NCBI GenBank assembly: GCA_964583985.1 | Contig: CAZOYD010000001.1 | Location: 133,595-197,594 of the forward strand | Length of the DNA stretch: 64,000 nt | Direction: 5' to 3' | Source of the DNA: an uncultured archaeon | Lineage (GTDB): Archaea > Asgardarchaeota > Lokiarchaeia > Sigyniarchaeales > SOKP01 | Shown here: positions 11,527 to 15,792 of the stretch, one piece after another | Position numbering within the stretch: position 1 is the first letter of the stretch | Layout: the number at the start of each line of letters is the position of its first letter | Translations under genes and position numbers: made by a program | The notes under the pieces: generated by a model | The model's database searches: none | The model's input: only the letters and a program-made list of their open reading frames with translations | What the model was told of the DNA's origin: nothing

Positions 11527-11991
11527 TTATTCTTGGTTACGTTTGGCAAATAATTGTTTTAGTTCACCCATTATTGCTCCCCTTAAACTTTGTGGATTTG
11601 CTGGTCGATTCCCTCCAGGTCCTCCAGGTAATGGGGGTGGTCCCCCGGGCGGTCCTCCGGGCGGTCCTCCGGGCGGTCCCCCGGGCGGTCTTCCGGGTGG
11701 TCCCCCTAATGGGGGAGGTGCACTACTTGGAGCGCTAGGTGCGGCTACAATTGGAGTAGAGAGCGCTGATTTAGCTTTTATATTAGATACTTCTGTATTT
11801 ATGGTATTAATTCGTGATTCCATTGTTGTAATTTGCTGATTTATTGTTAATAGAGCTTGATCAACTAGATCTGGGATCCTTAGAAACATTGTCATCATTT
11901 TTTCCACAATATCTCCAAAAGCATTAATCTTTTCTTCAATCGGTGATTTACGAGCATTTTCTAAAAAGCTGGTAAACTCTTCTGCACACAT
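11527..11991 (-). CDS. Coiled-coil, polyproline and C-terminal WH2/FAB-like helix protein
   Basis: N-terminal heptads, (GPPG)n tract and terminal SLRGAIMGELKQLFAKR. Confidence 0.75.
   Translation of the reverse strand: MCAEEFTSFLENARKSPIEEKINAFGDIVEKMMTMFLRIPDLVDQALLTINQQITTMESRINTINTEVSNIKAKSALSTPIVAAPSAPSSAPPPLGGPPGRPPGGPPGGPPGGPPGGPPPLPGGPGGNRPANPQSLRGAIMGELKQLFAKRNQE
11639..11707. repeat. 12-bp tandem repeat GGTCYYCCGGGY (5 full copies plus a partial copy) encoding PPGG units
   Basis: Copies start at 11639, 11651, 11663, 11675 and 11687; partial copy at 11699. Confidence 0.95.
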
Positions 11992-12128: not shown

Positions 12129-12761
12129 TTAGCTTGACTTGGATACGGTTTCTTTTATTTTTAACCATAAATTGTCTACCTCGTCTCTTACTTGTAAAAA
12201 TTGATTAATTTTTTTAAGCATTACATCTCGAGCTCTATCAAATTCTCTTTGAATATCATTTAATTCAGATTCATAAATTTTTATTTTTTCGCCTTCTTCC
12301 AAGTTGTTTTTCTTTTTTTCAACAAATAAAGCCTTTTTTATGATAGTGCTTCTCCTTTGGGCCACCTCGTTTAGTGCATCAGCAAATTCTTCTTCTTTTT
12401 CAATTAAATAATCCTTTTTCAGTGTAAGATTTTTTATTGAATCAATATAACCCTTGTTAGCTTCAATATATTTATCATTTTGATGGATAATATCATCAAA
12501 CAATCTTACTTCTTCATCTTTAATATTAGACCGCTTTTCTCTTACCAATGTTTGCATTTGTTTTAAAACGTCCCTATAAGTTCGATTCATCATTTCTCTT
12601 GCGAAATTGGCTTTAGTTAAATTTTCCGCGTATTTTTTCTGAGAATTTACTAGTGTTGATTGAGCTTTGGCTAGTTTTTTAATTTCTTTAACGAGTTCTT
12701 GCTCAATTTTAGCTAATTCTAACTCATCTTCATGTGTTATTATTGGACTCAAAATTTTCAA
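12129..12761 (-). CDS. All-helical coiled-coil protein, BAR-domain-like
   Basis: 210 aa, almost free of Pro and Gly, three long helices; C-terminal KIKIYESELNDIQREFDRARDVMLKKINQF resembles SNX-BAR helix 3. Confidence 0.5.
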   Translation of the reverse strand: MKILSPIITHEDELELAKIEQELVKEIKKLAKAQSTLVNSQKKYAENLTKANFAREMMNRTYRDVLKQMQTLVREKRSNIKDEEVRLFDDIIHQNDKYIEANKGYIDSIKNLTLKKDYLIEKEEEFADALNEVAQRRSTIIKKALFVEKKKNNLEEGEKIKIYESELNDIQREFDRARDVMLKKINQFLQVRDEVDNLWLKIKETVSKSS

Positions 12762-13891: not shown

Positions 13892-14965
13892 TTAATATTT
13901 ATATCTTAGGATAGCTACGAGAGATCCCAAATCTTCAATACGTTGTCCAGTTGGATGCTCACTACTCATAATATGGATTACTCCTTGTGATTTCTCTACA
14001 TTGCTAATTATTCGTTCAATACGTAATTTTTGATTTTTTTTCGCTCCTCGAATTAGAGTATCAACAAGAAACAATTCTTTTACTGCACCATTCTCCGATG
14101 CGATATCTATTTCATCAAATCCAATCGCAACTAGATCGGGATTTTTATCAAACAAAGTAAAGATATCCTCTATATTTTGGCTCTCTTGTAGAATTTTAAC
14201 ATTACTTTTTATTTTTGCTAATTTTTTTGATTTTAGAATCTCAATAATTCCACTTTCTGTCCCAGAACTCGCATGAAAGGTCTGAATTTTATTTTGATAA
14301 GGTACTTTTGCTTTTTCTTTCAAATAGGTCAAAAAATGTTCCTTAACACTTCCAGGTCCACATAAAACGATTAAATTAATATCATTTATCTTCAAATTTT
14401 CTCCAAGTATCTTATCTACTTCCGCAAAAAAATCTTGATATGCTTTATTTCTATGTGTTTGCTCGTATCGCTTTCCAGGAATGTTTCTTTTTATAGTAGC
14501 AATTCTTTTATGGCTGAAATTTGTAGTAAGGGAGATTGTAGCTAAACCTGTTTCTATAGCAACAATAATCATATTAAAATTAACCTCGAATTTGGAGGGT
14601 TCACTTAATCTCTTTATTTCGTTTTTCAACCATTTTTCTTTTATGATAACCAATTTCTGGCCAATTTCAATATTTAAAGTATGATGGGTTCCAAAACTTA
14701 CAAAATCGTCAGGTCCTTCTAATATTGTGCCCTTGATCCTTAAACGATTCGAAAATTCATGAAATGAGAAATCTTCCACATTAATTTTAAGATACATTGG
14801 TTTACGTTCTCCTTTAGAACCTTCTTTTAATACTATTCTTCTCTGCGTTCGGGCAGCAACTTTGTCATTTTCTGCTATTATGTTGTATAGGGTCCATAAA
14901 TCGTTTAAGTTCTCGATCTGAACTGAAACTTCTCCCAATTTCTCATTTATGTCCAGAATCTTCAT
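13892..14965 (-). CDS. pelA: mRNA surveillance protein Pelota
   Basis: NDLWTLYNII, RLRIKG, GTHHTLNI, IPGKRY and AILRY. Confidence 0.95.
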   Translation of the reverse strand: MKILDINEKLGEVSVQIENLNDLWTLYNIIAENDKVAARTQRRIVLKEGSKGERKPMYLKINVEDFSFHEFSNRLRIKGTILEGPDDFVSFGTHHTLNIEIGQKLVIIKEKWLKNEIKRLSEPSKFEVNFNMIIVAIETGLATISLTTNFSHKRIATIKRNIPGKRYEQTHRNKAYQDFFAEVDKILGENLKINDINLIVLCGPGSVKEHFLTYLKEKAKVPYQNKIQTFHASSGTESGIIEILKSKKLAKIKSNVKILQESQNIEDIFTLFDKNPDLVAIGFDEIDIASENGAVKELFLVDTLIRGAKKNQKLRIERIISNVEKSQGVIHIMSSEHPTGQRIEDLGSLVAILRYKY

Positions 14966-15092
14966 TTACAATCATTTGATCTAATGATAAGGTTAAAACT
15001 AAAAGGTATTAGTAATTGAAAAGTATTTTTTCCAATAAAGTTATATGCTCCAAATTAGAAAAATAAATAAAAAAAAATTATAAAAAAATAGA

Positions 15093-15245
15093 TTATTTAT
15101 CTCCAAGAGCTTCTTTTATCTTCTCCAATTCTTCCATGCGCTTCTTCTTTTCTTCCTCGCGTCGCTGCATTTCTTTTTCGTCTACTTTTTGGAGAGTAAC
15201 GCCCTTTTTTATATCCTCTTTCAGTTCATTATCAATTGGGGTCAT
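15093..15245 (-). CDS. 50-aa WH2-motif microprotein (not in the ORF track)
   Basis: Translated by hand: MTPIDNELKEDIKKGVTLQKVDEKEMQRREEEKKKRMEELEKIKEALGDK*. GAGGT lies just upstream of the ATG and T-tracts follow the stop. Confidence 0.8.
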   Translation of the reverse strand: MTPIDNELKEDIKKGVTLQKVDEKEMQRREEEKKKRMEELEKIKEALGDK

Positions 15246-15351
15246 TATACCTCAGCATTCCTTATTTTAAATACTAATCTGAATTTGTAGCATTTATAGA
15301 TACAGATATTATAATAGTTTTTATTTATAAGTTTAAGTTAATGATAAAAAG

Positions 15352-15792
15352 CTAGAGTTTAAGCTCCATTAAGTAAGCATTATCCCCTATGCGGTAATAA
15401 TTATCAATTTCTTTGATAATACGAAAATTATGGTTCTGATAAAGCTTAAGAGCACTCAAATTAGAGATTCGAACATTTAAGATGATTCGTTTAAAAATTT
15501 GTGATTTTTCGACTTCCATTATAACATGATTCAAGAGATAAGAGCCTAATCCCTTATGTCGATATCCTTCTTTTATGAGGAAATTTATGATGTTGAGCGT
15601 TTTTCTTTCTTGCTCTAAAATTATTACAAATCCTATTATTTTTCCATCGTCATTTACCAGTTTAAGAAAAAAATTGTTATCATGTATTAACTGTTCAATT
15701 GATTCTTTTGAAAAAGAATCAGCTTTGAAAGTGGTTTTCTCAAGTGAAATTATTTGTTCTAAATCCTTAATTTTAACTTTTTCTATCTTCAT
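15352..15792 (-). CDS. rimI: RimI/Ard1-type N-acetyltransferase
   Basis: YRHKGLG, LNVRISN..ALKLY and NYY..GDNAYLM. Confidence 0.85.
   Translation of the reverse strand: MKIEKVKIKDLEQIISLEKTTFKADSFSKESIEQLIHDNNFFLKLVNDDGKIIGFVIILEQERKTLNIINFLIKEGYRHKGLGSYLLNHVIMEVEKSQIFKRIILNVRISNLSALKLYQNHNFRIIKEIDNYYRIGDNAYLMELKL

Follow-up and report, generated by a model that had tools for sequence, protein, structure and literature searches.

A conserved archaeal microprotein family with a WH2-like motif as a candidate actin regulator

Reviews in the literature that we searched present profilins and gelsolins alone as the actin regulators of Asgard archaea, and these were also the only ones that we found there to have been studied experimentally in that role. 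There, the only mention of WH2 for Asgard archaea is of a four-residue linker within gelsolins; such WH2-like linkers (LVDV, LKDV and LRRV) have been seen on actin in crystal structures (PMC9433394, bioRxiv 10.1101/2025.11.30.690169). They share with the microprotein described here an LKKT-type stretch, found there inside an Asgard actin regulator, but they lie between two gelsolin domains, carry no WH2-type helix and form no independent module, whereas the microprotein unit is self-standing, repeated and fused to other domains. The closest archaeal precedent for the microprotein is arcadin-2 of Crenarchaea, which places a short helix in the hydrophobic groove of crenactin, sequesters crenactin and is likened by its authors to thymosin beta4 (PMC5173319). 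Arcadin-2 differs in lineage and in the actin that it binds, and its helix, the C-terminus of a larger protein, lies in reverse orientation; the comparison is one of description, and no sequence relation is claimed. No description of the microprotein family was found in the literature searched.

Outside the archaea, two families of actin-binding peptides invite comparison. WH2 domains (PF02205; N-WASP, WAVE, WIP, MIM, Spire, Cordon-bleu and the bacterial VopL/VopF) share with the microprotein a short amphipathic helix, a glycine cap, a three-residue spacer and an L-(K/Q)-K-V stretch, all in identical spacing, and likewise occur alone, in tandem and beside profilin-related parts. The microprotein differs in having K or Q at the second hydrophobic position of the LL pair, in carrying directly after the motif, inside the repeated unit, a conserved 27-residue charged helix that has no WH2 counterpart, and in belonging to a family of archaea of one order only. 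Beta-thymosins (PF01290; thymosin beta4, ciboulot and actobindin) are likewise free-standing peptides, ~45-50 residues long and built of an N-terminal helix, an LKKT-type stretch and a second helix at the C-terminus, and they too have tandem-repeat relatives; however, the helix-to-L spacing of the microprotein is of the WH2 type, that of thymosins being longer, and its C-terminal helix starts two residues past the motif and is much longer and better conserved.

The microprotein gene lies in a 64,000-nucleotide stretch of DNA from an uncultured Loki-type Asgard archaeon, referred to here as the window, with the following features.

15093..15245, minus strand: microprotein coding sequence, ATG start, 50 aa, TAA stop (stop codon 15093-15095)
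15183..15224, minus strand: WH2-like motif, residues 8-21, L-x3-I-x2-G-x2-L-Q-K-V, from alignments and the PDB profile search
15207..15239, minus strand: short amphipathic helix, residues 3-13, hydrophobic face 4, 8 and 12, from an AlphaFold2 monomer prediction
15099..15179, minus strand: long charged helix, residues 23-49, R/EEEKKKR-M-EEL, predicted; holds the top-conserved block of the family
15249..15253, minus strand: SD-like GAGGT, 3 nt 5′ of the ATG
15321..15332, minus strand: TATA-box-like block ACTTATAAATAA, 76-87 nt 5′ of the ATG, kept in genus loci
15069..15088, minus strand: terminator-like T7 and T9 runs of the coding strand, 5-24 nt past the stop (T7 15082-15088, T9 15069-15077)
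15352-15792, minus strand: GNAT acetyltransferase gene, neighbour of the microprotein ORF on the side opposite to pelota
13892-14965, minus strand: pelota gene, neighbour; the microprotein ORF lies 127 nt upstream of it

A sequence-only reading of the window had proposed an ORF at 15093-15245 with an SD-like GAGGT and downstream T-tracts, and both elements were located as listed. A purine-rich GAGG or GGAG occupies the SD position in most of 10 aligned genus loci. The 12-nt ACTTATAAATAA block is invariant in 10 genus loci, the remaining spacer having diverged, and is probably the promoter of the microprotein gene itself, while the T7 and T9 runs, which resemble archaeal terminators, may terminate its transcription. 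Because of this conserved TATA-like block and these T-tracts, the gene probably has its own promoter and terminator. The gene order rSAM-GNAT-small ORF-pelota-rSAM is kept in 30/30 genus loci. A small ORF upstream of pelota, for which the sequence-only reading had suggested a search, is kept in the family to which the window belongs and in a single genus of a sister family, and only there; in other families of the order the neighbours are different and comprise a MoxR-type AAA ATPase, a WD40 protein, a CCA-adding enzyme and CDP-archaeol synthase.

The ORF is a real and strongly constrained gene, because of its conservation rather than because of the motif alone. By six-frame search the small frame was present in 34 of the 35 genomes of the genus, and with the family profile in 141 of the 152 genomes of the order; the same profile found it in 0/7 genomes from other families of the class and gave just three marginal matches among ~240 further genomes of the phylum. 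The family thus sampled is confined to one order. The NG86 dN/dS was 0.09-0.12 over 255 pairs, the variable columns at codon positions 1, 2 and 3 numbered 20, 14 and 39 of 41, and identity across the genus was 71-86% for the microprotein, 61-67% for pelota and 42-50% for the GNAT gene. A chance ORF or a leader peptide of pelota was ruled out by the dN/dS, the gene's own promoter-like box, the T-tracts and the other neighbourhoods.

The gene had been thought unannotated and easily missed by gene callers. The exact protein and 58 homologues (37-51 residues) are, in fact, already in public gene calls, unnamed or as 'hypothetical protein', and 'unannotated' is true for its function only. An exhaustive search of the profile against 1.84 billion representative proteins gave 66 matches at E <= 1e-3, mostly of 47-77 residues, and no canonical WH2 protein at that threshold. 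A single-sequence search for longer relatives returned none at E <= 0.01, the fusions described below surfacing with the profile search only. Among the genome's 8,866 open frames, a strict WH2 regular expression, written after the sequence was seen, matched this ORF alone; at one match against an expectation of 0.15 from shuffles in this one genome, the motif alone does not exceed chance and is not significant by itself.

The anatomy of the protein was that of a genuine stand-alone small protein, WH2-like in its N-terminal half and continued by a long charged helix, as had been proposed. Residues 8-21 follow the exact canonical spacing of the L-x3-I-x2-G-x2-L-K-K-V type, and the conserved residues of this first half coincide with the positions that define WH2: L8, I12, G15, L18 and K20 are invariant or nearly so in the family alignments, and position 4 is hydrophobic in every aligned member. 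The AlphaFold2 monomer (mean pLDDT 82.6) was predicted as a helix over residues 3-13, a non-helical stretch over 14-22 and a second helix over 23-49, the middle of which reached a pLDDT of 88-93. The first two of these elements give the layout of a WH2 domain in prediction, and a stand-alone protein of 50 aa predicted as helix-loop-helix also has the layout, and only the layout, of a beta-thymosin. The charged E/K/R-rich helix, a single alpha-helix in the sequence-only reading, is no neutral spacer; it is the best-conserved part of the family, with E30, E31, E32, K35 and R36 invariant in 23 diverse members and M37 and L40 also in the block. The loop residues G15, L18 and K20 are constrained as much as this C-terminal helix.

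Direct comparison with the WH2 and thymosin families gave limited signals. The Pfam WH2 model (PF02205) did not match the window protein at E <= 10, and the microprotein ORF was not reported in a six-frame PF02205 search of its own genome. The model matched 5 of 52 family members, one of them (P0086, 23.7 bits) above the curated cut-off of 23.1 bits and the others at 13-16.5 bits, and it was sub-threshold in two tandem proteins; the WH2 HMM check suggested by the sequence-only reading therefore failed for the window protein itself, as did the Thymosin model. In searches of family profiles against all 177,635 distinct PDB sequences, the best match in two different alignments was to N-WASP WH2 constructs, at profile positions 7-24, with E-values of 5.5e-5 and 4e-4 for 3m3n_W and of 0.25 and 0.088 for 2vcp_D; the single WH2 domains of the PDB match scored 8-10 bits each, the summed E-value coming from three near-identical engineered copies. 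The Pfam Thymosin model (PF01290) gave no match at E <= 10 in the microprotein's own genome and none in any family member scanned, including the small forms of the sister family, and three family profiles found no thymosin chain in the PDB at E <= 10. The nearest named language-model clusters carry PF01290 Thymosin, with values of 0.87 and 0.86 that are below the level that counts and serve as a lead only. Recurrent sub-threshold matches among the 52 members were to DUF3006 (14/52) and to the H-NS N-terminal domain (10/52). The WH2 signals are each weak, come from different methods and all point in one direction; homology to eukaryotic WH2 is not statistically demonstrable from these sequences.

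Like WH2 domains, the module occurs with other actin-regulatory parts and in tandem arrays, here as profilin fusions and as arrays of about ten units. In P0101 (302 aa), P0121 (387 aa), L089 and L090, the latter two from sister genera of the window's own family, an N-terminal profilin-type domain precedes between one and four modules, and a small domain closes the protein. The N-terminal domain matches solved Asgard profilins (5zza_P, E 3.8e-11 and 6.9e-9; 7pbh 'Profilin', 2.1e-9; also 5yed and 5zzb), and with the Pfam Profilin model the fusion N-terminal domains score just under the cut-off. In the profilin fusions and in some short forms (P0101, P0121, P0103, P0116, L089 and L090), the C-terminal ~45 residues form a conserved small domain (...DYIYDDFQLL...) that corresponds to no Pfam family. 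Elsewhere the module is joined to ribbon-helix-helix (RHH) domains (L075, L076, L092 and P0115), to LRR plus a zinc finger or RHH (P0104, P0110 and L091) and to a RING-like finger (P0124), and the profile finds seven repeats in P0099, a eukaryote-like FHA/PP1-binding/SAP protein that is not a known actin binder. Paralogues with an RHH DNA-binding domain and one module are encoded in the same genus and family (L075:1434-1787 (-), L076:1384-1773 (-) and L092:715-1116 (-)), the window's genome being without one. If the module binds actin, the RHH fusions would amount to a transcription factor coupled to actin, with a loose resemblance to MRTF and its RPEL motifs.

The tandem proteins, from members of a sister family, comprise 479-497 aa and about ten units. 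One was predicted to consist of ~36-residue helices separated by low-confidence loops of 8-10 residues in which the G-x-x-L-K-K-V stretch lies, and the model showed no compact fold (pTM 0.18); the alignment behind this model was shallow (5 sequences), the mean pLDDT was 63, and the loops were non-helical with a pLDDT below 50. In genome G054, a single contig of 6,035,313 bp, the array gene lies at 4,726,363-4,727,826 and the monoisotopic mass of its product is 56.414 kDa. Tags 03343, 02589 and 04136 denote actin and the gelsolins 2DGel2 and 2DGel1 (Supplementary Table 3, bioRxiv 10.1101/2025.11.30.690169), genes that lie at 3.925, 3.040 and 4.784 Mb of G054, and interpolation of gene numbers with these three calibration genes placed the array gene at tag ~04084. 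The 'CoIP Lokiactin' sheet of that study contains GNAMCCOK_04085 with 56.41 kDa, 44 peptides, 70.5% coverage, a log2 ratio of 4.53 and an adjusted p of 0.0021, beside ratios of 4.44 for Lokiactin and 3.97 for 2DGel1, and GNAMCCOK_04085 was detected in all the proteomes that are listed (bioRxiv 10.1101/2025.11.30.690169). The text of the study names gelsolins, profilins, an Arf GTPase and BAR proteins, and does not name GNAMCCOK_04085 (bioRxiv 10.1101/2025.11.30.690169). The ten-unit protein of G054 thus appears to match GNAMCCOK_04085, an assignment made by gene order and exact mass, not by accession, an exact look-up of the three tandem proteins having returned no entry. On this assignment, a tandem relative of the microprotein reached an enrichment in the Lokiactin co-IP on a par with that of actin, although a co-IP can be indirect. 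The profilin fusions and the co-IP together link the module to actin, as the earlier proposal of a stand-alone archaeal actin-monomer-binding peptide would have it; the Pfam WH2 and Thymosin models, for their part, miss the window protein.

Other proteins strongly enriched in the same co-IP sheet and unnamed in the text of the study are GNAMCCOK_00333 (37.5 kDa, log2 9.2), 02751 (67 kDa, 7.7), 04250 (20.6 kDa, 5.1) and 03085 (4.41 kDa, 2.7) (bioRxiv 10.1101/2025.11.30.690169). The sister family with the ten-unit protein also keeps a stand-alone form of 55 aa that ends in GKWEE (L086:1255-1419 (+), L087:1243-1407 (+) and L088:1248-1412 (-)), and the small homologue of G054 has a mass of 6.57 kDa. 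The linker from helix to motif is two residues longer in these 55-aa forms, a feature in which they resemble thymosin beta4. This longer linker was nevertheless dropped as evidence for a thymosin, the PDB search with the profile of the sister-family small forms having found no thymosin or WH2 chain.

Considering the above, we favour a reading, with a probability of roughly 0.6, in which the gene encodes the free-standing single-unit form of a ~45-residue Lokiactin-binding module; the microprotein would bind Lokiactin directly through its WH2-like first half, use the charged helix as a second contact and act as a thymosin-like monomer buffer, and the profilin-fused and ten-unit forms would be its multivalent versions. 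The short amphipathic helix (positions 4, 8 and 12) would occupy the barbed-face hydrophobic cleft of the actin monomer, the G-x-x-L-Q-K-V stretch would run extended across the actin surface as the LKKV of WH2 domains does, and the charged helix would continue up the monomer in the manner of the C-terminal helix of a beta-thymosin. In this way the peptide would keep monomers in a non-polymerising or hand-over pool, and the forms joined to profilin or built of ~ten units would gather several actin subunits. The Lokiactin of the same genome keeps the stretches LYASGRTTG and IGGSIL-x-SL-x-TF that form the cleft, a role known from rabbit actin, and this main Lokiactin is 99% identical across the genus. 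For the actin link, the context, that is the profilin fusions and the co-IP, is stronger than the sequence evidence. That the module is in addition a true homologue of eukaryotic WH2 or beta-thymosin, with peptide-type monomer handling, next to profilin and gelsolin, in Asgard archaea that predates eukaryotes and the ten-unit protein a nucleator or filament organiser of the Spire/Cordon-bleu type, seems to us quite unlikely.

The same observations can be read without actin as the direct partner. The module could serve more generally as a charged helical element for adaptor contacts or oligomerisation, docking on a non-actin hub, its WH2 likeness being convergent or a matter of chance in a helix-cap-turn-helix peptide and the co-IP of the tandem form indirect; fusion to the unrelated RHH, LRR, zinc-finger and RING-like domains would suit such an element, as would the location of the strongest conservation in the helix and not in the WH2-like part, the recurrent sub-threshold matches to DUF3006 and the H-NS N-terminal domain, and a motif that alone is within chance in one genome. 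Yet eukaryotic WH2 domains are also found in many multidomain contexts, at least four proteins pair the module with profilin, the tandem form stands level with actin in the Lokiactin co-IP, and G15, L18 and K20 are as constrained as the helix, all of which make a general adaptor possible but somewhat unlikely. Binding to actin of a different kind, to the side of the filament with one unit per subunit as in nebulin repeats or tandem W domains, would make the module a decorator or stabiliser of filaments and not a buffer of monomers. It draws on the predicted ~36-residue helices and 8-10-residue loops of the tandem proteins, a 36-residue helix measuring ~54 Å, near the 55 Å subunit spacing along one actin strand, and on a best PDB match that is a tandem-W construct, which assembles a longitudinal actin dimer. 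We consider it improbable, as the alignment behind the tandem model is shallow, the model is of low confidence and fusion to profilin, a monomer binder, suits monomer handling better.

The gene precedes pelota by 127 nt on the shared strand in 30/30 genus loci, and likewise lies upstream of it in a single genus of a sister family, and the protein has a K- and E-rich composition like that of small ribosome-associated proteins; these features could also suggest a small protein with a role in translation or at the ribosome, in partnership with the ribosome-rescue factor pelota. Against such a role stand the gene's own promoter-like box and the T-tracts between it and pelota, the different neighbours in other families of the order, the absence of any translation-related Pfam family among those reported, and fusions that join the module to profilin, LRR and RHH domains and never to translation domains, and we hold it to be extremely improbable. 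Direct binding of Lokiactin remains our preferred reading, and the microprotein family is probably an undescribed archaeal actin regulator.

If this is true, a WH2/thymosin-type peptide would form a third class of Asgard actin regulator, and a motif regarded as eukaryotic, and as borrowed by bacterial pathogens, would be placed in the archaea most closely related to eukaryotes. Given its confinement to one order, the family may be a lineage-specific invention or a convergence, and either would be likewise informative on how easily the hydrophobic cleft of actin recruits short helices. The claim is directly testable: the peptide has only 50 residues, a relative in culture expresses the tandem protein, and both an antibody against Lokiactin and co-IP results are available.

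Several further observations concern the genome and its surroundings. The genome encodes two Lokiactin paralogues that are 83% identical (L039:1498-2640 (-) and L040:683-1825 (+)) and three more distant genes of the actin family. In a distant family of the phylum, helical proteins of ~260-310 aa (L084:1180-1980 (+) and L085:1036-1968 (+)) contain an internal segment, ...ELKASILSGVSLKKVDEE..., to which the first half of the family profile aligns at a marginal E of 7e-4 to 9e-4; it may be a remnant of the motif beyond the order. Within the window, 12129-12761 (-) encodes a 210-aa all-helical, coiled-coil-like protein, described as BAR-like in the sequence-only reading, to which no Pfam family was assigned at a significant E. 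At 11527-11991 (-), 3.1 kb from the small ORF, the window encodes a protein of 154 aa whose N-terminus is coiled-coil and which continues with a long polyproline tract, (GPPGG)n, and a helix at the C-terminus that ends ...SLRGAIMGELKQ...; this last helix gives a match to the one at the start of the module in LRR-fused relatives (pairwise E 5e-5 with P0104 and 7e-4 with P0122), and the combination of polyproline with a tail like a WH2 helix recalls layouts of the VASP/WASP type.
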